NCBI GenBank assembly: GCA_964474885.1
Contig: CAYYWO010000001.1
Span: 82,619 to 146,618, forward strand
Direction of reading: 5' to 3'
Origin: Candidatus Hadarchaeota archaeon
GTDB lineage: Archaea; Hadarchaeota; Hadarchaeia; Hadarchaeales; JAWBSP01
DNA: 64,000 nucleotides
Made by a program: the position numbers and the translations under genes. A model generated the notes under the pieces. It made no database searches, was not told the origin of the DNA, and saw only the letters and a program-made list of their open reading frames with translations. Of the stretch, positions 1 through 64,000 are shown one piece after another (position 1 is the first letter of the stretch; each line of letters starts with the position of its first letter).

Positions 1-1438
1 GAAGGAGTTTCATGCTTTTCGCCCGATGAGTGCAGGCTTGCAAGTCTAATGTAGAAATTTTCTGGAATCTCCACCTTTATTCCTCTTCTCTTACAGATCT
101 CCTTAACGATTTCAGGAGGGATGCCATGTGAGTCGTACAGCAGAAATAGCTGATCTGAGATGTTCAAACCGTCCCTTATCATCCGCTCCACAAGTCTTTC
201 TCCCTTGGACAGGGTTTCCTGATATCTCTTGTGCTCTAGTTCAGATACCGTCAGTATGTAGCTTCTCCGCTCCCAAAGCTCTGGAAATTGGGATTTGAGA
301 AGTTCGAGTTCATACTCCATTAGCTCCAAAAAGTTGGCATCAATCCCGAGTTCTTTCAACAGTCGTATGGTTCTTCGCAAAACGAGCCTAGCCAAATAGC
401 CCTCGGCCATGTTGCTGGGTGTTATGCCATCTCCAAACATGAAGGCTAAGCAGCGCAAGTGATCTGCCACGGCGTAAACATTTTCTATGGGTCTGAGCAA
501 GTGATCTGTCTCCTCCGGTGTCAATCCAATCTCTCTTGCAACACGTTCACGAAGCCACTTCAATCCTCTACCTGATTCGACATCCATTGCCCCAGCTAGC
601 TTGGAGCTCGTCTGAAGCACGTGTTTCGCCGGTTTTTTAACCCCTGCCATCTTTTGGATTTTTTCAACCATGGGACCAAAAATGGCGTCGTACGATGTCG
701 GGTCCCCCCTGGACAACCAAGTCAGTCTCTCCATTCCATAGCCAGTATCGACTATCTGCAGGGGAAGGATCTGCCGGGATCCATTTTTTATCGCGTACCT
801 CATGAAAACAAGGGTGGCCACTTCCAAGCCTCTTACGTTAACCTCGAAATCCTCTCCCGCGTTTCCTCCTCCTTCCCAGAAGCCTTCCACGTAGGTTATT
901 TCTTCTGGGGCTATTCCGAGTTTTTCAGTTAAGAATTCATGACAGAATTCAACTGTCTCGTGGTTCCAGTAGACGGTTTCCTCCTCAGAGTTGAAGGCGT
1001 GATGCCCCCCCATGAAAAAAAGAGTGAAGTGCTTTCCGGAGCGTCCGACATTGTCAATGTCCTTCAGTCTTATGCTCGGCTGACTGATGACTAGGGGATT
1101 TGCAGGAGGTGGAACGGAGCCGCTGGTGACCCAGGGCTGAAAGTTTGCAATGGATGCTATAGTGAGGTAGATGTCATCTCTCCATCTGGCAACTACAGGA
1201 TACCTACGGAGAACTTTATGTCCTTTCTCTTCAAAGAATTTCAGGAACTCTGACTCCATCTGAGCTTGGGTGTACTTCCGACGAGTGGGAGGGTTGCCTA
1301 AAAAAGCGTATTCATCGCAGGGGCTGTCACCGCAGGTTGTTCGGTCAGGATCAAGAGTCCAGAAATACCTACCGCATTTCTTACATCTTTTTCTCTGAAA
1401 TCCCAGCTTCCTCCAGAGTCTGACTTCGTAGATGCCCA
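1..1438 (-). CDS. alaS: Alanyl-tRNA synthetase, N-terminal part (gene continues beyond window start)
   Basis: Minus-strand translation from the ATG at 1438 gives 'MGIYEVRLWRKLGFQRKRCKKCGRYFWTLDPDRTTCGDSPC...RYPVVARWRDDIYLTIASIANFQPWVTSG...GGHHAFN...DTGYGMERLTWL'. This is the archaeal class II AlaRS N-terminus including the zinc-ribbon. The frame stays open to position 1, so with no in-window stop it is missing from the ORF track. Confidence 0.85.
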
Positions 1439-15778: not shown

Positions 15779-18019
15779 TTGATGAAGGTAAACTACAGGC
15801 GCTGGGCTATTTTAACATACTTAGGTTTCCTTATTTTCTTCTCCTTTCACGTCCTCCTGATACCTGGCGAGAAGTACAAGGTCTTAACGACTTCTGACTC
15901 GGGCTTTTTTGCAGGCATAGCTGAGGAGATAGACTCAGCCAATCATCTGGTGGACAGGTATTGGAGGTCACATGCACCCACCGGCTGGCCCTTGAGAGTA
16001 CAGGATCAGGGTCAACCTCTTCTTACCGTGATGCTTTATAGAGGCCTCTCAGCAGTCTTTCCGGGAATAGAGCTTATGGATGTCATAAACTACTGGGCCC
16101 CCCTCATGTTCGCCGTCTTTTTAATTGGAGTCTTCTTAGCTGCAAGGGAGCTGGGGGGTGATGTAGCGGGATTGGCAGCTGTTTTCTTCGCGAGTGTAAT
16201 GATATCGAGTATCTATTGGTTCAAATTTTCGGCTTATGATAGAGAATGTCTGACCCAGGCATTGTCTGCTTGGATAATCTACCTCGCAATTCTAACCATT
16301 AAGCGATCCAGTGTCGGCATGGGGGTGCTAACAGGTTTGGTTCTCTCAATTCTTGCTCTCAGCTGGCCCGGGTGGCTCTACCTAACACCCATAATTCTGG
16401 GTGCTCTGCTGCTTCCTCTCTTGTACGACTTTTTTAAGGAGGTGGTGCTCACGAGGAGGTTTGTGAGTTCCTTGATCAGAGCATTCTTAAATAACTGGAG
16501 AGTGATCGTGTCAGTCATCGTCATATTTGGGGTGGTGACGGCGCTATGCACATCTTTGGGAGAGCCTCCGAACTGGATTGGTTTTGCTCAGGTATTAGCT
16601 TCCTATGTCGGGCTGAGTGGTGGCGGAGGCCCCGCACTTCGAGCGAGATATGCTTCCGAAATGGTAGCTCCCCATTCTTTTTCTGAGGTAATGTACTCCT
16701 TTTATCGTCCAGTATACAGGAACTCGACAGCCGTTACAATCCAGGAGGTTCTGACGAGGTTTCTTTACTTTTCGATCTTCTTGGGGGTATGCAGAGTCCT
16801 CTGGACTAGGAGGAGATGGGAGTGGATCATAATCCCCTGGCTGATAATCCTCATGGGCCTAGTTTGGCCCGGGAAAGGTCAGGCTAGATTCGAGCGCCAG
16901 TGGTGGCCTTTTGTTGCTGTAGTTATGGGCCTTGCCGTGAGTACACTTTGGTGGGGGGTGAAGAAGCTGAGCCAAGAGTGGGGCTTCTCGCCTCACTATT
17001 TCCGTCCCCTACCCGTTCTATTGCTTCTCCTGTTTGTTCCCTTAGGTCAGAATGCGATTGCTCAAGCAGAGCATACAGCTCCGCCAACTGAGTGGGCAGG
17101 CCCAGGCTTTGATCAAGCGTACATTGAAGCATGCGAATGGCTCGAGAACAACACACCTGTGGACTCTGTGGTGGCAGTCGAGTGGTCCTATGGGCATCTA
17201 TTCTCCGGGGCTTCGAAACGCAGAACCGTGTGCGATGGTGTAGAAGCACTGGGACGGGAGGGCGTGTGGGAGAACAAATCCGAGATAAAACCACCGGATT
17301 ACATTTACCGGGTAGAGGGAGACAGGGCGTATATTTATGGTGTTGACATAGGAGGCGCCCTCTGGACTCTAGCACCATATAAAGTATACGGCAGGAGGAC
17401 AGATGTCCTAAGAATCCGGTACATGGACAGCGATGAGTTGAGATGGTGGTTAGAAACTTATCGGGACAACTGGGGTGTAAAAATCGATTATATCGTTCTG
17501 GACATGTGGGACTGGTGGTTGGCTTCCCGGATTGAGCAGCACAGGGCCTATTACTTGACCGCTGGTTTCGGTTCGTCACCCCTAAGGATAATAAGCTCAG
17601 TTTCAATTGAGAACCAGGATAGTATCCTTCTCCTACATTTCGGCGAAAACAGGGAGAACATAGTGATAAATACGACCACCCACCAGGTTTACCTGGCTAG
17701 GCAAGGGGCACCAGATCTGTTAATGGATGGTTACATCGATGTAATAGCGGATTCAAGAGGGAACATCCTTTCCTCTCAATACCATAAGTCCCCTAGGTTA
17801 CCTGAGGTGCCGGAAACGGTGATCCTGCTTAGGGTGCAGGGGCAAGGCATAACATCTGCTGCCCTGTATCCGTCTAGGAGAGAGGAAATAGAGCACAGAG
17901 GACCCTGTGTAGGTACGTACATGTATGCCGAAAACCTACCTGATTATTTAGAGCGAGTTTTCCTGAGTTCGAACGGTCTAGTTGCCCTCTTCAAAGTAGA
18001 TTGGGCCAAGTTAACCTGA
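15779..18019 (+). CDS. Polytopic membrane protein, possible STT3/AglB-family oligosaccharyltransferase (divergent)
   Basis: 746 aa. About 13 TM helices in N-terminal 450 aa, then a soluble C-terminal domain. 'DSVVAVEWSYGHLFSG' aligns by eye with the AglB 'DxVxxSWWDYGY' region, but WWDYG is replaced by EWSYG. Confidence 0.4.
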   Translation: MMKVNYRRWAILTYLGFLIFFSFHVLLIPGEKYKVLTTSDSGFFAGIAEEIDSANHLVDRYWRSHAPTGWPLRVQDQGQPLLTVMLYRGLSAVFPGIELMDVINYWAPLMFAVFLIGVFLAARELGGDVAGLAAVFFASVMISSIYWFKFSAYDRECLTQALSAWIIYLAILTIKRSSVGMGVLTGLVLSILALSWPGWLYLTPIILGALLLPLLYDFFKEVVLTRRFVSSLIRAFLNNWRVIVSVIVIFGVVTALCTSLGEPPNWIGFAQVLASYVGLSGGGGPALRARYASEMVAPHSFSEVMYSFYRPVYRNSTAVTIQEVLTRFLYFSIFLGVCRVLWTRRRWEWIIIPWLIILMGLVWPGKGQARFERQWWPFVAVVMGLAVSTLWWGVKKLSQEWGFSPHYFRPLPVLLLLLFVPLGQNAIAQAEHTAPPTEWAGPGFDQAYIEACEWLENNTPVDSVVAVEWSYGHLFSGASKRRTVCDGVEALGREGVWENKSEIKPPDYIYRVEGDRAYIYGVDIGGALWTLAPYKVYGRRTDVLRIRYMDSDELRWWLETYRDNWGVKIDYIVLDMWDWWLASRIEQHRAYYLTAGFGSSPLRIISSVSIENQDSILLLHFGENRENIVINTTTHQVYLARQGAPDLLMDGYIDVIADSRGNILSSQYHKSPRLPEVPETVILLRVQGQGITSAALYPSRREEIEHRGPCVGTYMYAENLPDYLERVFLSSNGLVALFKVDWAKLT

Positions 18020-38449: not shown

Positions 38450-39571
38450 ATGAGGTTATCATATGTCATGATATCGCTTTTTCTGTTCCCGCTGGTTTTT
38501 GCTCAGACGGCGGAACCCCCGACTTGGGAAGTGGGTGACGAATGGGCTTGGGGTTCAACTTGGGACATTGATAATTTTCTCAGGAATTTGGCGAATCAAG
38601 TGCCCCAACTCGCCCTAACAGAGGCAAGCGGGGAGTTCAGTTGCTATAGTGTGCAACGTGTGGCTGCTCTGCGGGGTGGAGAGTACGTGACTTCGGTTAG
38701 GGTGGGCATGGAGCTGAGAGACTTCAAGGTAACGGGAAGTTACAAGTCGCCGGAACACGGTTTGGAGCCCCTTGCAAATGTCTCTCTCAGTGCTTCAGGA
38801 TGGCTCAAGGCAAATGGGGAGTTCACATACACCCAACAACTGGCTCTGCATACCCTGAGTCTCTCTGGGAATGGTGAGCTAGAGGCGGCACTTACTGCTC
38901 CAGGTTTTTCAAGTTCCTTTGAGTTCTGGAACTTCGATTTGGGCCTTTCGGCCACCTATGACCCGCCTGCGGACATCTTTAACTTCCCAATTCAAGTTGA
39001 GGAGGAATGGGAGTACTCTGGTGCCTACTCAGGCAGAGGAAGAGTTTCGTGCGAAGTGAAAATGAGGATTGAAATGGGCGACTACGAAAATACTTGGGAG
39101 AATTCATTTTCCTACGAGGACACCTTCTCAGAGGAACTGACGGTCAAATATCGTTGCAGGGGCATTACGCAGGTTCAGACTGGAGGGAAGGAGCTTCAGT
39201 GCTTCGAGATCGAGGTGACATCTGAGGGCCAGAAAGCTCCTATTTTCATCCTGCTGTACTCTCCCGAAAAGAAAAATTTCGTAGGACTGGAGGTAAACTG
39301 GCTAGGACTCTTCTTCCAGTTTGAACCCTTCTCGGAGCACGTGAAGGAAGCAGCTGAGCAAACACCCGTCGGTCCACTAGTCGAGGAGATGGACATGGAG
39401 GGGGTTCTGCGCTCGACAGAGGAGACGGTTCAATTTTATTCCGTCTCCCCCTCCGAGGCAGAAGAGCGGATTGAGGGGATGGGTGGGAGAGAAGGTCTGC
39501 CAATTGAACTAGAGATTATACCCCCTCTTGCAATAGCAATCGTAATAATTGCTACCAGGTTGCGCAAGTAA
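38450..39571 (+). CDS. Secreted/membrane-anchored hypothetical protein
   Basis: 373 aa. Signal peptide 'MISLFLFPLVFAQTAEP', C-terminal TM anchor 'IIPPLAIAIVIIATRLRK', acidic Trp/Glu-rich body. Confidence 0.5.
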   Translation: MRLSYVMISLFLFPLVFAQTAEPPTWEVGDEWAWGSTWDIDNFLRNLANQVPQLALTEASGEFSCYSVQRVAALRGGEYVTSVRVGMELRDFKVTGSYKSPEHGLEPLANVSLSASGWLKANGEFTYTQQLALHTLSLSGNGELEAALTAPGFSSSFEFWNFDLGLSATYDPPADIFNFPIQVEEEWEYSGAYSGRGRVSCEVKMRIEMGDYENTWENSFSYEDTFSEELTVKYRCRGITQVQTGGKELQCFEIEVTSEGQKAPIFILLYSPEKKNFVGLEVNWLGLFFQFEPFSEHVKEAAEQTPVGPLVEEMDMEGVLRSTEETVQFYSVSPSEAEERIEGMGGREGLPIELEIIPPLAIAIVIIATRLRK

Positions 39572-58672: not shown

Positions 58673-59380
58673 TTAAGCTAGCCCTATCGCTATCCAGTAA
58701 ACGCCCGTGTTCCAGACTGAGCCAGCCCCTCTTCCATCTTCCTGAACGTAAATACGGAAGGAGGTCGTAGTCACATCATACGCCTGGACCCAAATGTTCT
58801 CTGAGGTTTCGGCAGGATTTTCTAGCGTGAGCAGAACTGTTGGTTTTTGGGAGAAGGGCACCGGGAAGTTTATAGGAGCCGTGACCCCCTCGCCCGAGAG
58901 CCCAGTGGTGACACGTCCCCACTGAATCAACAGTGTACCGAACTTGGCATAATTTTCCTCGATTCCTGGCATCTCGAGTAGCTCGAGCGTCCCCTCTACT
59001 ATGAGGTCACCATTCACCCAGACTTTGTCCCACTGAAATCTAAACTTCTCGATTTGCCAGCTAACAGGTGGAGGTGTGTAAATATATCCACAAGGTGAGG
59101 TCATCCTCAGATTACCACTAATCTCAAGTTTCTCGGCTGGGTTTTGGACACCTATTCCCAGTTTTCCCTGGATGCCCAAGTTAGCCCCCACTTTGACCGT
59201 GTTTTCGATCAAGATTCTGCCTGAGCCTGATGAAAGTCTTAAGGTCAGATTCTTGCCGCAGTTCGGATTTGTTCCAACCGTAGTGTTTTCAAAGCAAATG
59301 TTCTCGTAGACAGTGCTGGGTCCCGAAAGTGAGACAGAAAGGATCAATAGCAGTCCAATCAGAAAAGCGGCACGCCTCAT
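58673..59380 (-). CDS. Secreted protein with C-terminal H-type-lectin-like domain (paralogue 3 of operon)
   Basis: Likely start 'MRRAAFLIGLLLILSVSLSG' (signal peptide). ORF track extends to 59422. Central 'LGIQGKLGIGVQNPAEKLEISGNLRM' tail-fibre-like motif. C-terminal 'LIQWGRVTTGLSGEGVTAPINFPVPFSQKPTVLLT...SFRIYVQ...VYWIAIG' matches the H_lectin pattern V.F...F...P.V...GF...W.A.G. Confidence 0.7.
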   Translation of the reverse strand: MRRAAFLIGLLLILSVSLSGPSTVYENICFENTTVGTNPNCGKNLTLRLSSGSGRILIENTVKVGANLGIQGKLGIGVQNPAEKLEISGNLRMTSPCGYIYTPPPVSWQIEKFRFQWDKVWVNGDLIVEGTLELLEMPGIEENYAKFGTLLIQWGRVTTGLSGEGVTAPINFPVPFSQKPTVLLTLENPAETSENIWVQAYDVTTTSFRIYVQEDGRGAGSVWNTGVYWIAIGLA

Positions 59381-60129
59381 GTTCCCTCCCCCACGGCTAT
59401 CCAGTTGATGAATACATCCCAAGAGTCGGATGGCGGGGAGATGTCACCGTCCCTTTGTTCCCACACTTTAAAGCCCCTTTTCGTAACAGAGGCAACCTGG
59501 ATCCAGTAATCAAAGGAGTTCGGGTCTAGGTAGTTCGTCACATCCGCCGTGACGGCCACGCTGGGAGTGCTCTTGAATTCCCGTGGGAAAGTTATGGAGT
59601 AGTAGCCTTCATCGCTCAATCCTGTTCTTTGTCTGCCCCACTGGAGGAGCAAGGGCCCTATTTTCACCCAGTAAGCCTCGCCGGAGGTGTTGACATTGTA
59701 CTTGCTCACCATGCCCTCCTCTTTGAAGCTAGTCATCAGGAGTCTCCCCAAAACGTTTAACCTGTGTATCTTCGTCCCTTCCCTCGAGACCGACAGCAGA
59801 ACCTCGTCCCAGTTACCGAGCATGGTGATCTCTCCGTAAATGAAAGAGTTTGGATTGGCAAATTTCACCTTCCCGCAAACTTCCAGCCCTTGAATGGTAC
59901 CCGTTGAGCCTATGCCCACCCTGCTCCCCGCGATTAGGTCGCCAGATATCGAGACAGAACTCTGTTCGATCTGCAGGACACCTGAGGGGGATGTCAGCCA
60001 GAGCCTAGGGGCTCGCAAGGTGGTGTTCTCGATGGAGATGTTCTCCCCGTCCACTTGGAACAGAGCATCTGAGAGCTTGACCATCAACAGCAGGCTGATT
60101 AAGCAGATGAGACAATATAACTTTCGCAT
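59377..60129 (-). CDS. Secreted protein with C-terminal H-type-lectin-like domain (paralogue 2 of operon)
   Basis: Likely start 'MRKLYCLICLISLLLMVKLSDA' at 60129, 2 nt after the stop of the giant gene. ORF track extends to 60171. 'VGIGSTGTIQGLEVCGKVKF' motif. C-terminal 'LLQWGRQRTGLSDEGYYSITFPREFKSTPSVAVT...GFKVWEQ...INWIAVG'. Stop overlaps the start of paralogue 3 (ATGA). Confidence 0.7.
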   Translation of the reverse strand: MRKLYCLICLISLLLMVKLSDALFQVDGENISIENTTLRAPRLWLTSPSGVLQIEQSSVSISGDLIAGSRVGIGSTGTIQGLEVCGKVKFANPNSFIYGEITMLGNWDEVLLSVSREGTKIHRLNVLGRLLMTSFKEEGMVSKYNVNTSGEAYWVKIGPLLLQWGRQRTGLSDEGYYSITFPREFKSTPSVAVTADVTNYLDPNSFDYWIQVASVTKRGFKVWEQRDGDISPPSDSWDVFINWIAVGEGT

Positions 60130-60131
60130 TT

Positions 60132-63100
60132 TCACCACCCTATTGCCATCCAGTGGATTGGAATGTCCCAATCCACCCCCGTGTTTACCTTATCCTGTTG
60201 CAACCATGCCTTGAAGCCCAGCGGGCTCACGTCATACACTTGGCAGACCCAGATGTTCTCTGCGGAGCTGGCAGTTTCTATCTCTGGCGTGACGATCACA
60301 ACGGGGAGGCAGTTGAAGGGTCTGGGGAAGCTGACTGAGAACCCACCCTCACTTGTTAGACCGCTTTTGATCTGCCCCCACTGAATGAGGAGACCTCCGA
60401 TCCGGATCCACCACCAGTTTTCATCCCCTCCGATATTCTCGGAATTCTCGAGAGATGCCTCTAGCCTCCTCACCTTGAGCGGGCCCAGCACAGGGTAAGA
60501 GGTATCGATGTATGGTATTCTGGCGAAAGTTTGTTCTTGTCCCACTTGGATCTCTTCAGGCTCCCATAAGGCAGGTTTCCTGCACCACAAATGCTGCTTG
60601 GGTATAGGGAAAGTAATACTCCCGCCTGGCTTGACCCATCCGAGCCCCAACCTCCATTCTCCCTCCCCTTGATTCCACTCGAGTCTCACTGGGACAGGGA
60701 CCGAGGCTACGAGGTCAACTTTACACTTGTGAAGTGTCGGGGGCTGGGGTCTCCATTGAGAAATGACCACCCTGTTGTTCTCATAAAGCTGACAGGCATC
60801 ATCGGTAGCTACGAGCAACTGGTAAGTACCGCTCTCTGGTGGGAGGAGCCAGCCCTCCCACCTCAGACTGAGATTTTGGGTGGCGTCCTCCCAAGAGTTT
60901 GTGCCCGGTTTTCTGGCCTCTATGATGACATCATCGACGGCGATCCAAGATTCCTCTGATCCACCGATCCCGGCTTGATCTTTCACATAAATGTACAGGC
61001 GTACGGCTGTCACGCTGGATCGGACGGTCATCTGCCCCTGCATCTGGTACCAGACTCCAGTAGAGACGGAGTGTGATCCAGACAAGTAACGTGAGCATAT
61101 GGTTTTCCACTCTGATCCCTCAAGCACCTCCAATCTGATTTCCTCTACATCTAGTTCTCCATCCCCTCCGTAGCAGTACCAAAGGGAACCCCTGACTTCG
61201 TATCCGGCTGGGATTTCAGTAGGCAGATCTTGGGACCAATAAGCGTATCCTATATACGTGGTGGTGCCATCCCATGGTCTGTCATATCCCCAAACTTTCA
61301 CGGAGCCGCTACCGTCACCTGTATGATCCTCGGTGGTCCAGCCTGGTTGCTTATCGGTTTCTCCCGGGTCTGAATGATCTCCCAGCACCCAATTATCTGG
61401 CTGTCCATCACCGTCCGTATCTGCCATTTTGCCATTTGTTGTTTTATTTTCCCAATCTCCAGCTTGATCAATTACCTCCAGACTCAAGTCGTCTACAAGT
61501 ATTGCGGAGACCTGACCATCACCATCATCCCTGACACCGATGTGGATCAAGAAGTTGTCTACTGTTCCGGTAGTAGTGTACTCCTTCTTGAAGAGATACC
61601 ACTTCTTGGTCGTTACAGAATGGCTTTCGTCGGTGCACCAACCCCAGCTCTCCCAGCTCCCGTCCTGTCTGATCTTGACTTGGACATTTTCGTAGTCTAG
61701 CTCCCCATCTCCTCGGTAACAGTACCAGAATTGTATCTTGATAGTCGTGTTCGGTGGAATTGGGCCGATGGACTGCCACCACTCCGCATCTTTTTGGGAA
61801 CCGTTTCCCGAGATGACACATAGACAAGCACTATTGTCAGCAGAGTGTTCCTGCCCGACCAAGGTAGCTAGACTGTCGTCTCCTGTTGTGTAGGTGACTT
61901 TCCAATCCCAGTCGGGGAGAACTGCGATGTCTTGAGCAAAGTTGCCGTTGACGATCCTTTCTTGTCCATCTGACAGCAGCGAAACACTGTCAATCCACAA
62001 CCAGTTATAGCGATCTCCCACTGAACCTCCATAGTCTTCCACATAGATGTATAATCGGACCCATTCTACCTCAGAGGAAGTAGTATAGCTACCTGTTGCG
62101 GATGTCCAGTCTGTCGCTCCACCGACCTCTCCACTGAATGAAGTCACGGTTGACCAGCTATCCCCATCCAGAACCTCCAACTTGATCGTGACTTGGTCGA
62201 ACTCCCCGTTCGTTGTCCAGTAGAATGAGCCGGACAGGGAGCTTCCTGCAGGGATGGGAGGAGAAATGAACTGTCTCAACTCCACTTCCTCATACTCTGT
62301 TTCAAGTGCTCCCGCCTGTACATCGATGGCAAAGGAGTGACTCCCATCACCATCGTGGTCCCGGTGATACTCAGTGTCGAAGTTCGATCCCTTGCTACAG
62401 CATACGCCAGGGGCCATCATGTCCTCAGGATCCACTCGGTACACGAACATGATCCAGTTGTTTGGGCGGATCTCTCCGTTTCTCAGGACTTCATGCGTCC
62501 CCTTGAAGGTGGCTGCAACTTTTTCGGTAGTCCCATAAGCGGGATTGTCTACTACGCCGCCGCATTTATTCGGGGCACCATAGACATCCGTTCCTCTGTA
62601 GGAGTCAAAGTTTGTTCCAGCGTAGTAAAAGTACCTCAGTCCTTCATCCATGGTCGCTTGGATGTTGTCCGATAATCGGGATTTCGTGGCCGAGGGATTG
62701 CCATAGTACATGTAGATTTTGGAGGGGGTTGAGGGAACGCGGATCCAGATCTTGGTAGAGGTCGTGTTTTTCCCAGATTCTACCCACCAGGGTATCTCGG
62801 TTCCGTCTCCTGTCACGAACCTGAGGTCGGAGAGATCTGGCTTCAGCTTTCCCTGGGAGATGAGGCTTTTTGTGTCGAGTGTGAGGAGCAGCTGAACATC
62901 GGGAGCGTTTCGCACTACGCTAGCTCCAGGCTCGGCGTATCTGACTTGGAGAACCGGGCGCTCACTTGTTGCCTCTCTAGAGTTGAACTCCGCCCAGACA
63001 CCATAGGCCCGCTCTGCCTCTATATCAGTCCGCATCATGAGGGATATCAGGTTGTCGGAGTCCAGCTCTCTCTGGACCAAGTCATAGGGGATGGCCCACT

Positions 63101-64000
63101 TTATCCATTCATCGACAGGGTTTTGTCCATCGTTCGGCCCATACCAGGTGACTGAACCTATAATGTTCTCTGAGGGATTGGGGTCTGTTCCATAGGGCTG
63201 ATTGTTCCAAGTTATCGTGGTCTCCTCCCAGCTGTCATCGCCACAGAAATGTAGAACGGCGGTGAATGAATCATCAGCCTTGTAGTCAGCCTCCGTGCAG
63301 TAGATCATGAACTTGGCTGAAAGGATGGTCGAGCCAGGAGGTATGGAGGATAGATCAAACCGGAGATATGAGCGGTGATCATTTCTCACGAAGAACCGAT
63401 AATATGATTCGACTCGGAGATCTGCGGTGGTTCCGTAATTTCCGTCCGGATCTCCCTCTCGGACCTTTGCATCGGCAACCGGTTCGAGTGTAACGGTTTT
63501 GCTGATACCACCACTCAGGAACATGAAGGTCTCGGGGATCTGGATGGCCCTCCTGAACGACCAGCCGTCCAAGTGCCATTCAGTGTTATCCATTTCTGCC
63601 CCTAGCCTCAAGTTTTCACCTATAATCCCCACATCTGGACCGCTGAGTTTCAGGTGTCCGTAAATCTCCAAGTTCTCTCTTATCGGAGTTCCCCAGTAGT
63701 AAGGTATGCCTATTCCAACCTTTCCTGAAACATATGAAACCTGTTCCGAACTGCCCAGCACATGAACGGAAGCCAGCAGATCCCTTAACTCGAAGTAGGT
63801 GACAACGAATCTGTTATAGTGGGTTGAGGAGGTTCTAGCCCCCACTCCAGCCAACTTTCCCAACTCCCGCGGGGCATCTGTAAAGGAAAGAATAAGATCT
63901 CCTTCGTAGTATACCTCAAACTCGCCCGAATAATATACCACCCTGAAGCTGTGCCACCCGTTGTTTATAGCGAGGTCGTTTTCTGCAAGGACATCGCCGT
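60132..64000 (-). CDS. Giant secreted multidomain lectin/adhesin-like protein (over 1290 aa; N-terminus outside window)
   Basis: Reading frame stays open past the ORF-track start, which is only a GTG at 63941, up to the window edge. Domain-like modules by eye: 'VGIGIPYYWGTPIRENLEIYGHLKL' tail-fibre-like motif; DNRLRE-like module 'YLRFDLSSIPPGSTILSAKFMIY...DSWEETTITWNNQP'; three about 150-aa repeats carrying 'GDGELDYENVQVKI' / 'GDGELDVEEIRLEV' / 'NGEFDQVTIKLEV'; PA14-like 'GTYQLLVATDDACQLYENNRVVISQW'; C-terminal H-type-lectin-like 'LLIQWGQIKSGLTSEGGFSVSFPRPFNCLPVVIVT...GFKAWLQ...IHWMAIGW'. Confidence 0.75.
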   Translation of the reverse strand, partial: GDVLAENDLAINNGWHSFRVVYYSGEFEVYYEGDLILSFTDAPRELGKLAGVGARTSSTHYNRFVVTYFELRDLLASVHVLGSSEQVSYVSGKVGIGIPYYWGTPIRENLEIYGHLKLSGPDVGIIGENLRLGAEMDNTEWHLDGWSFRRAIQIPETFMFLSGGISKTVTLEPVADAKVREGDPDGNYGTTADLRVESYYRFFVRNDHRSYLRFDLSSIPPGSTILSAKFMIYCTEADYKADDSFTAVLHFCGDDSWEETTITWNNQPYGTDPNPSENIIGSVTWYGPNDGQNPVDEWIKWAIPYDLVQRELDSDNLISLMMRTDIEAERAYGVWAEFNSREATSERPVLQVRYAEPGASVVRNAPDVQLLLTLDTKSLISQGKLKPDLSDLRFVTGDGTEIPWWVESGKNTTSTKIWIRVPSTPSKIYMYYGNPSATKSRLSDNIQATMDEGLRYFYYAGTNFDSYRGTDVYGAPNKCGGVVDNPAYGTTEKVAATFKGTHEVLRNGEIRPNNWIMFVYRVDPEDMMAPGVCCSKGSNFDTEYHRDHDGDGSHSFAIDVQAGALETEYEEVELRQFISPPIPAGSSLSGSFYWTTNGEFDQVTIKLEVLDGDSWSTVTSFSGEVGGATDWTSATGSYTTSSEVEWVRLYIYVEDYGGSVGDRYNWLWIDSVSLLSDGQERIVNGNFAQDIAVLPDWDWKVTYTTGDDSLATLVGQEHSADNSACLCVISGNGSQKDAEWWQSIGPIPPNTTIKIQFWYCYRGDGELDYENVQVKIRQDGSWESWGWCTDESHSVTTKKWYLFKKEYTTTGTVDNFLIHIGVRDDGDGQVSAILVDDLSLEVIDQAGDWENKTTNGKMADTDGDGQPDNWVLGDHSDPGETDKQPGWTTEDHTGDGSGSVKVWGYDRPWDGTTTYIGYAYWSQDLPTEIPAGYEVRGSLWYCYGGDGELDVEEIRLEVLEGSEWKTICSRYLSGSHSVSTGVWYQMQGQMTVRSSVTAVRLYIYVKDQAGIGGSEESWIAVDDVIIEARKPGTNSWEDATQNLSLRWEGWLLPPESGTYQLLVATDDACQLYENNRVVISQWRPQPPTLHKCKVDLVASVPVPVRLEWNQGEGEWRLGLGWVKPGGSITFPIPKQHLWCRKPALWEPEEIQVGQEQTFARIPYIDTSYPVLGPLKVRRLEASLENSENIGGDENWWWIRIGGLLIQWGQIKSGLTSEGGFSVSFPRPFNCLPVVIVTPEIETASSAENIWVCQVYDVSPLGFKAWLQQDKVNTGVDWDIPIHWMAIGW

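Follow-up and report, generated by a model that had tools for sequence, protein, structure and literature searches.

A giant pilin-like mosaic protein with putative glycan-binding modules, encoded in a five-gene cluster of a Hadarchaeota-related archaeon

A 64,000-nucleotide stretch of contig CAYYWO010000001.1 of Candidatus Hadarchaeota archaeon (assembly GCA_964474885.1, positions 82,619 to 146,618; hereafter the window) carries at its right-hand end most of a gene for a giant mosaic protein, P0001. This gene, here called gene C, is the third in a compact run of five genes (A–E) that share one strand. Its module content suggested that P0001 is probably a modular type IV pilin-like protein, acting as a minor pilin or tip adhesin that binds glycans. 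The evidence consists of a pilin-type N-terminus, several carbohydrate-binding module families, a fibre-type stalk with a lectin-like head, and a binding cassette that differs between otherwise near-identical loci.

Within the window, the open reading frame (ORF) of gene C was called at 60132..63941 (-), and its reading frame contained no in-frame stop up to the window edge; the gene is therefore 5'-truncated by the window end. A database search returned the full product of 1,613 amino acids (aa), which was 100% identical over the window part and is located on a 178,623-bp NCBI contig and on a 34.6-kb Logan contig (L001). When L001 was mapped onto the window (window position = 74974 - L001 position), the start codon of gene C fell 973 nt past base 64000. 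Residue numbers below refer to the full 1,613-aa P0001 unless they are given in window-protein numbering, which refers to the truncated product.

The N-terminus of P0001 comprised a class III signal peptide and a pilin module, MKG|ISPVVATVLLIAVVLAGAAIY, a motif that was invariant among the orthologs. The Pilin_N profile (PF07790) matched with 32.1 bits against a cut-off of 25.2 and covered profile positions 1–76 of 78. Downstream of this anchor, an initial annotation of the window, made by eye, had parsed the protein into a DNRLRE-type module, internal repeats, a PA14-like segment and a terminal lectin. All four were recovered by profile searches and supported by sequence matches to the Protein Data Bank (PDB), with additional support for PA14 and the head from a moderate-confidence fold search; the parse had overlooked DUF2341, the truncation of the gene by the window and the pilin-like nature of the anchor. 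The strings on which it relied were all present, each at a single consistent place. In window-protein numbering, the DNRLRE pattern was found as RSYLRFDLSSIP at 209, AKFMIY at 228 and WEETTITWNNQP at 257, in agreement with both Pfam CBM96 and the NCBIfam DNRLRE_dom.

The module assignments were above the family cut-offs. CBM96/DNRLRE (PF24517) scored 81.8 bits against 26 (E-value 3.9e-23; profile positions 2–163 of 164), DNRLRE (NF033679) 83.1 bits against 34 (2.2e-23), DUF2341 (PF10102) 52.3 bits against 23.4 (3.3e-13), PA14 (PF07691) 45.9 bits against 24 (6.1e-12), Gp53-like_C (PF21882) 34.3 bits against 24.9 (4.9e-8) and CBM_4_9 (PF02018) 33.7 bits against 25.9, in two stretches of the giant protein (7.9e-7). 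In sequence searches of the PDB, matches came from a "DNRLRE domain-containing protein", from the CBM96 module of an alginate lyase and from the PA14 domains of clostridial RsgI sensors. No catalytic domain was found by profile searches anywhere in P0001 or in the A–E cluster. The second stalk motif also reads GKVGIG...LEIYGHLKLSGP. The insert between the two stalk motifs (residues 216–414) had no Pfam or PDB match and, in BLASTP, matched the lectin region of protein A only weakly (E-value 0.023); as this match stood by itself, with no PDB or Pfam support, a ConA-like identity of the insert was rejected.

Three CBM_4_9-like repeats, R1–R3, aligned with one another as units of ~125–135 aa, and their similarity was far above chance. 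Smith-Waterman z-scores against 200 shuffles were 21 for R2-R3, 16 for R1-R3 and 4.3 for R1-R2, and the common motif read W(Y/F)x(Y)xGDGELD ... SHSV(T/S)T ... (V/I)RLY(I/V) ... (V/I)DD(V/L). The three repeats of the initial annotation (GDGELD at 763 and 945, NGEFD at 597, VRLYIYV at 647 and 999, and LIHIGV at 817, in window-protein numbering) are thus real, with a unit shorter than the ~150 aa proposed, and their description as jelly-roll or CBM-like agrees with the CBM_4_9 assignment. R3 was 58–60% identical to the ortholog repeat Rb. The proposal that an Asp-rich stretch forms a calcium-binding linker fared less well: DTDGDGQPDN (DTDGDGQPDNW... at 860 in window-protein numbering) was missing from both orthologs, and conservation gave it no support. 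An AlphaFold2 (AF2) model of residues 414–1613 had a mean predicted local distance difference test score (pLDDT) of 38.7 and was unusable; Foldseek matches of this low-confidence model to reelin repeats and a tandem CBM22 (4xup) were weak.

The C-terminal part modelled better. For residues 1354–1613 the mean pLDDT was 58.2, with values of ~62–68 in the PA14 part and 66–88 in the head. The PA14-like string at 1057 (window-protein numbering) was confirmed by Pfam, in a match restricted to profile positions 40–139 of 147, and the top Foldseek matches of this part of the moderate-confidence model were the PA14 domains of RsgI, MpIBP, Epa and Flo (E-values 2e-5 to 2e-3). The terminal lectin module, with HWMAIGW at the C-terminus, was likewise borne out by Gp53-like_C and H-type-lectin similarity. 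Proteins D and E also matched Gp53-like_C, with 32.8 and 37.9 bits. The H-type lectin profile (PF09458) gave only 14.8 bits for the giant protein, below the cut-off of 24, which was passed by E (34.5) and D (25.9). Searched against the PDB, a profile of the head family retrieved the H-type lectins SLL-2, HPA and discoidin at E-values of 0.004–0.2, together with HAA, a "putative tail fiber protein" (4mtm) and the R1 pyocin fibre, and the head of the AF2 model matched R1/R2 pyocin fibre feet, HPA and SLL-2 in Foldseek, with 6cxb, 6ct8 and 2ccv among the entries. The features of gene C and of the adjoining genes D and E are collected in Table 1.

Table 1. Features of gene C, its product P0001 and genes D and E.
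Feature	Window position	Strand	P0001 residues	Remarks
Gene C, 3' 80%	60132..64000	(-)	326-1613 + stop	
Archaeal type IV pilin module	beyond window		1-~81	Pilin_N
Stalk motif 1	beyond window		183-215	ENLYLENTSITT..LTLKLTS
Insert, ~200 aa, between the two stalk motifs	63732..64000 (C-terminal part)	(-)	216-414	possibly ConA/L-type-lectin-like (see text)
Stalk motif 2	63636..63731	(-)	415-446	GKVGIGIPYYWGTPIRENLEIYGHLKLSGP; common to D and E; 41% identity to E 70-96
CBM96 / DNRLRE	62940..63497	(-)	493-678	Pfam, NCBIfam, PDB 7vbo and 8wab
DUF2341	62655..62900	(-)	692/713-773 (Pfam core 713-773)	
Variable region	61404..62582	(-)	~798-1190	~100 aa without family, plus R1 and R2
Stretch without family match			~775-890	
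CBM_4_9-like repeat R1	61938..62303	(-)	~891-1012	missing in orthologs
CBM_4_9-like repeat R2	61464..61853	(-)	~1041-1170	best Pfam CBM_4_9 stretch
Loop DTDGDGQPDNWV	61386..61421	(-)		thrombospondin-type-3-repeat-like; not conserved in orthologs
CBM_4_9-like repeat R3	60912..61307	(-)	~1223-1354	conserved copy
PA14 core with invariant DD	60618..60890	(-)	1362-1452	Pfam, PDB 6qdi and 6qe7, Foldseek
Neck	60399..60617	(-)	1453-1525	homologous to D and E necks
Gp53-like_C / H-type-lectin-like head	60135..60398	(-)	1526-1613	C-terminal; Pfam, profile against PDB, Foldseek
Gene D	59377..60129	(-)		250 aa; Sec-type signal peptide, stalk motifs, Gp53-like_C/H_lectin head
Gene E	58673..59380	(-)		235 aa; Sec-type signal peptide, stalk motifs, Gp53-like_C/H_lectin head

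The modules are probably nested rather than arranged as beads on a string. Two candidate DUF2341 strands, WSFRRAIQIP (63534-63563) and DVQLLLTLDTKSLISQGKL (62844-62900), both on the (-) strand, flank CBM96, and their equivalents are contiguous, as judged by eye, in protein P0269; CBM96 may therefore be inserted in DUF2341. Several unrelated homolog matches also combine CBM96 and DUF2341. A segment resembling the first PA14 strands, GLRYFYYAGTNFDSYRGTD (P0001 778-796; window 62586-62642 (-)), was noticed ~570 aa upstream of the PA14 core. When this was examined with a chimera, the PA14 alignment was extended to profile position 4 with a gain of only 1.9 bits, and a shuffled control was not extended. 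As a weak lead, the variable cassette and the CBM-like repeats may thus lie inside a split PA14 domain.

Of the other cluster genes, A encodes an 832-aa protein with a pilin-like N-terminus (RG|VSVIIY...) followed by Laminin_G_3, DUF2341 and a legume-lectin-like (L-type lectin) domain, and B a 308-aa protein with the pilin-like N-terminus SG|ISVVVG.... Gene D begins 2 nt after the C stop, and E overlaps D by 4 nt; D and E each carry both stalk motifs. In the interval 59377-60171 (-), D was called from an internal ATG, with 235 aa and no signal peptide, whereas a start at the ATG of 60129 yields a Sec-type signal and a length of 250 aa, an arrangement found in the ortholog locus too, suggesting that the deposited call of gene D is probably too short. 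At the end of the cluster, E adjoins rpS8e. Protein B (L001:9053-9979) and its counterpart B' (L002:1529-2461) have in common Y(F/Y)ECPFDG..F.N...YE.HMA.VH.WPLD, a Cys/His patch that recalls a zinc finger and is odd for a predicted extracellular protein. N-glycosylation sequons occurred at 5.6–14.4 per 1000 residues in the cluster proteins versus 1.6 in cytoplasmic proteins; for C, the count equalled the expectation from composition and was uninformative.

Protein E aligned to three separate pieces of C: E 21–53 to C 183–215 (48% identity, E-value 4e-6), E 70–96 to C 415–446, and E 73–233 to C 1441–1612 (E-value 2e-20). Because these pieces are collinear, C looks like a D/E-type fibre gene that was expanded by a pilin module and two large inserts, as far as can be read from the alignments. 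A HMMER search with E against 1.84 billion representatives gave 1,390 matches, most of them very large proteins with the stalk motif GxGIGxxxPxxxLEVxGN repeated up to 37 times. Among the matches listed, four covered most of the length of E (P0153, P0155, P0159 and P0027), of which P0153 is the E' protein of locus L002 and P0027 is D itself. The stalk motif could be linked indirectly to chain 8ol4 of a Bdellovibrio mosaic adhesive trimer (MAT) fibre, from E through P0221 (E-value 0.0024); a direct profile search of the PDB did not retrieve the MAT chains.

Full-length relatives of P0001 were rare. Among 5.8 billion proteins, only one was returned, P0002, with 45% (local) or 54% (global) identity, and the other homolog matches shared CBM96 or DUF2341 only. 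The locus of P0002 (L002) contained the same A–E genes; there, A' and B' point in divergent directions, three additional genes are present, and the flanking genes differ from those of the window locus. A metagenome scan added the loci L004 and L005, which were 99.5% identical to each other in DNA; these two, together with L013 and L014, showed C with D/E-type genes. In a third lineage (sample ERZ3623435), two small relatives were found: one immediately follows the PA14-lectin end of a C-like gene, and the other immediately precedes the pilin-like start of such a gene. The A–E set thus recurs in one other lineage, and C with small paralogs in a third. In a neighbour-joining tree of the neck and head regions, a C-type group (187/200 bootstraps) and a D-type group (193/200) were recovered across the three lineages, and the grouping of the E type with P0155 was not resolved. 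In L002 and L004 (L002:10809-13221 and L004:6780-9189), the cluster runs on with genes for a 275-aa transglutaminase-core protein, a 236-aa secreted protein (weakly DUF3108-like) and a further pilin-like protein of 276 aa (weak DUF7289), all of which are missing from the window. At the end of L002, a second very large protein of 1,803 aa (L002:17741-19335 (-)) had faint Big_13 and Ig_Rha78A_N matches.

Comparison of these loci pointed to exchange of a binding cassette. Over >14 kb, the DNA of L002 was 92% identical to that of L004, apart from a ~710-nt hole inside the giant gene (residues ~803–1040), which covers one CBM-like repeat and has the variable region of the window protein as its counterpart. 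Within the hole, protein identity fell from ~95% to 24–60% and synonymous differences were saturated (pS 0.83, versus 0.21–0.26 in the flanks). This drop in identity, together with the saturated pS, indicates that the cassette was replaced by recombination and did not diverge through point-mutation drift. Repeat number varied as well: the window protein has three CBM-like repeats, against two in P0002 and in the giant of L004, and the extra repeat, R1, is inserted at the variable site of the relatives. The domain shuffling suspected in the initial annotation therefore finds support both in repeat number and in cassette replacement. No DNA direct repeats of at least 30 nt were found in the cluster, and no extra or silent cassette copies in the flanks; with no reverse transcriptase seen either, a diversity-generating retroelement or a silent-cassette mechanism was rejected.

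The cluster lies in an ordinary archaeal chromosome, among housekeeping genes, and is not viral. The window contains Rad50/Mre11, RFC, GatAB, an L11-L1-L10-L12 block, EF-1alpha-S10, purine genes, TFB, Gar1, rpS8e and six tRNAs, its GC content is uniform, and the cluster is flanked by TFB, Gar1, rpS8e, RFC and tRNA synthetases. EF-1alpha was 86–88% identical to metagenomic proteins and 80% identical to proteins named Hadesarchaea or Candidatus Hadarchaeales in the homolog search, placing the host, by EF-1alpha homologs, as an archaeon related to Hadarchaeota. Two further window proteins, a 746-aa multi-pass membrane protein (15779-18019 (+)) and a 373-aa secreted protein (38450-39571 (+)), had no Pfam match at E<=0.001. 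Near the cluster, a 201-aa protein between MetRS and RFC (L001:1851-2456 (-)) showed faint Ig-like matches, no family match, and a C-terminal transmembrane helix with a basic tail. Past the window end, ~7.5 kb upstream of gene A, five tightly packed ORFs of 144, 119, 118, 141 and 209 aa (L015:3257-5421 (+)) each begin with a hydrophobic helix, for example MEKIG|IEPLALKLLVG... and MEGG|IAEVITLSF..., the first also having an Ig-like tail; none gave a significant Pfam match, and together they may represent small pilin-like proteins. Further out, ~11 kb upstream of the cluster, an 848-aa GH38/GH57-like glycoside hydrolase cut by the locus end (L015:1-1976 (-)) adjoins an HMG-CoA reductase gene.

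If P0001 is a pilin-like adhesin, a prepilin peptidase would process its N-terminus, and the N-terminal helix would then keep it in the membrane or build it into a type IV pilus, as a minor subunit or at the tip, with A, B and C forming a pilin-like trio. The lectin and CBM array would bind polysaccharide or cell-surface glycans and so attach the cell to surfaces, biofilm matrix or partner cells, and specificity could be diversified through swaps of the cassette with its CBM-like repeats. The class III signal with its pilin module, the lack of a catalytic domain and the phage/pyocin-fibre-like stalk and head fit the surface adhesin or glycan-binding fibre of the initial annotation, as judged from sequence. 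Several points weigh against this proposal. Stalk and head modules of this kind normally trimerise, which is hard to reconcile with a single pilin chain, unless that chain recruits partners. No ligand is known for the giant protein, and the AF2 models were poor (mean pLDDT 38.7 and 58.2). No pilus ATPase, platform protein, prepilin peptidase or recognised major pilin was found in ~81 kb (window, L001 and L015), and one cultured Hadarchaeota group was reported to be without PilA (PMC11297162).

The last two points, the lack of pilus machinery over ~81 kb and the reported lack of PilA in a Hadarchaeota lineage, also speak for the main rival, in which the class III signal serves export and anchoring only and P0001 is a bindosome-like, membrane-anchored surface lectin that never enters a filament; A–E would then form a cell-surface complex for glycan capture or adhesion. 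Precedent exists in non-pilin proteins with class III signals, the sugar-binding proteins of the Sulfolobus bindosome (PMC3047682). However, the Pilin_N match extends over profile positions 1–76, beyond the signal peptide, the cluster encodes two further pilin-like proteins (A and B), and archaeal pilin genes often lie apart from the machinery genes (PMC4858521). We regard this rival as possible, at rather less than even chances.

A more tentative proposal, which we consider unlikely, is that C, D and E assemble as a 1:1:1 heterotrimer, a "tail fibre on a pilin" in which the pilin-anchored giant and two Sec-secreted paralogs would together complete a trimeric stalk, neck and H-type-lectin head. 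It is suggested because the segments that D and E contribute are precisely stalk, neck and head, which are collinear in C, D and E, because the three genes are translationally coupled while D and E are secreted by a different route, and because distinct C-type and D-type groups have been kept across three lineages. In structures already determined, heads and stalks of this kind form trimers, which fits such an assembly. In it, CBM-cassette swaps in the giant chain may retune specificity.

Families such as CBM96, CBM_4_9 and PA14 are mostly found in carbohydrate-active enzymes, and the GH38/GH57-like gene lies ~11 kb away, so that P0001 might instead be a non-catalytic scaffold whose CBM array feeds a glycosidase or lyase of a polysaccharide-degrading system. 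We judge this very unlikely, given that neither C nor the rest of A–E has a catalytic domain, that the cluster is without transporter or enzyme gene, and that a fibre-type stalk with a lectin head is typical of adhesins. That P0001 is a receptor-binding tail fibre of an integrated archaeal virus or tailocin, as the C-terminal matches of C, D and E to PHROGs (tail fibre or virion structural protein) and Gp53-like_C, relatives on viral contigs (29–45% identity) and the resemblance of the fold to R-type pyocin fibres might suggest, is scarcely credible: the flanks are housekeeping genes that differ between loci and include no capsid, tail, integrase or terminase gene, GC content is uniform, C starts as a pilin and D and E carry Sec signals, and a viral origin was rejected on genomic context.

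To our knowledge, next to nothing is known of the surface structures of Hadarchaeota and other uncultured archaea from the subsurface and hot springs, and the A–E cluster is a concrete candidate for the means by which these cells adhere to polysaccharide, to biofilm matrix or to partner cells. P0001 joins an archaeal pilin module to modules that are otherwise characteristic of carbohydrate-active enzymes of bacteria, of adhesins of yeast and bacteria and of the tail fibres of phages; the giant adhesin has apparently grown from a small lectin-fibre gene that still adjoins it, and a binding cassette has been exchanged between near-identical loci. The heterotrimer, if real, would be a new way to mount a trimeric receptor-binding fibre on a single-chain anchor. 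Taken as a whole, C is best read as a modular pilin/DUF2341 adhesin or mosaic lectin fibre, a known kind of protein in an unusual arrangement that is rare in databases, and not a new principle.

Among known systems, one of the closest parallels is a tip complex of Streptococcus sanguinis, in which a lectin-bearing modular minor pilin, PilC, sits at the pilus tip with two other minor pilins, PilA and PilB (PMC9934059). Like C, PilC has a class III signal and a pilin module with grafted carbohydrate-binding modules, is encoded beside other minor pilin-like genes and has a predicted adhesive role. Unlike PilC, C has an archaeal Pilin_N-type module, about ten modules rather than one, a trimer-type tail-fibre head and two secreted non-pilin paralogs, and has no pilus machinery nearby. 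For the large DUF2341 proteins encoded at archaeal type IV pilus loci, a role as tip adhesins has been predicted (Makarova et al., PMC4858521), and a screen for mutants defective in transformation yielded transposon insertions in a DUF2341 gene of the Methanococcus maripaludis epd pilus locus (MMJJ_08210; PMC10133366). Those of arCOG03508 and relatives likewise occur as two large proteins per locus (here A and C) and are predicted pilus adhesins; in contrast to their loci, the present cluster stands alone among housekeeping genes, and the CBM96, three CBM_4_9, PA14 and H-lectin additions of C have not been described for such proteins.

The fibre part of C recalls the MAT fibres of Bdellovibrio, a group of trimeric adhesins with a beta-helical build and kinship to the tail fibres of phages (PMC10769870). 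The MAT superfamily is marked by a conserved N-terminal domain of ~130 aa, a long trimeric beta-helix and an optional S74 chaperone. MAT, phage and R-pyocin fibres (8ol4, 6cxb, 6ct8, 4mtm) appear to share with C, through the indirect link given above, the G-I-G-x3-P-x3-L-x-V-x-G type of stalk motif, and they have exchangeable C-terminal binding tips, in C with a gp53-like/pyocin-foot-like head. C differs from them in having two stalk motifs instead of a long beta-helix, a pilin anchor, large internal inserts and no S74 chaperone. The PA14 lectins (the RTX adhesin MpIBP, yeast Flo/Epa and Clostridium RsgI) appear to match C in hidden Markov model, predicted fold and the conserved DD pair, but the Pfam match in C covers only part of the profile, the first strands possibly lying far upstream. 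Finally, the CBM96 of alginate lyase Dp0100 (7vbo; PMC9971899) gave both a strong profile match and a PDB sequence match to C, in which, unlike in Dp0100, the module is not attached to an enzyme and is apparently nested in DUF2341.

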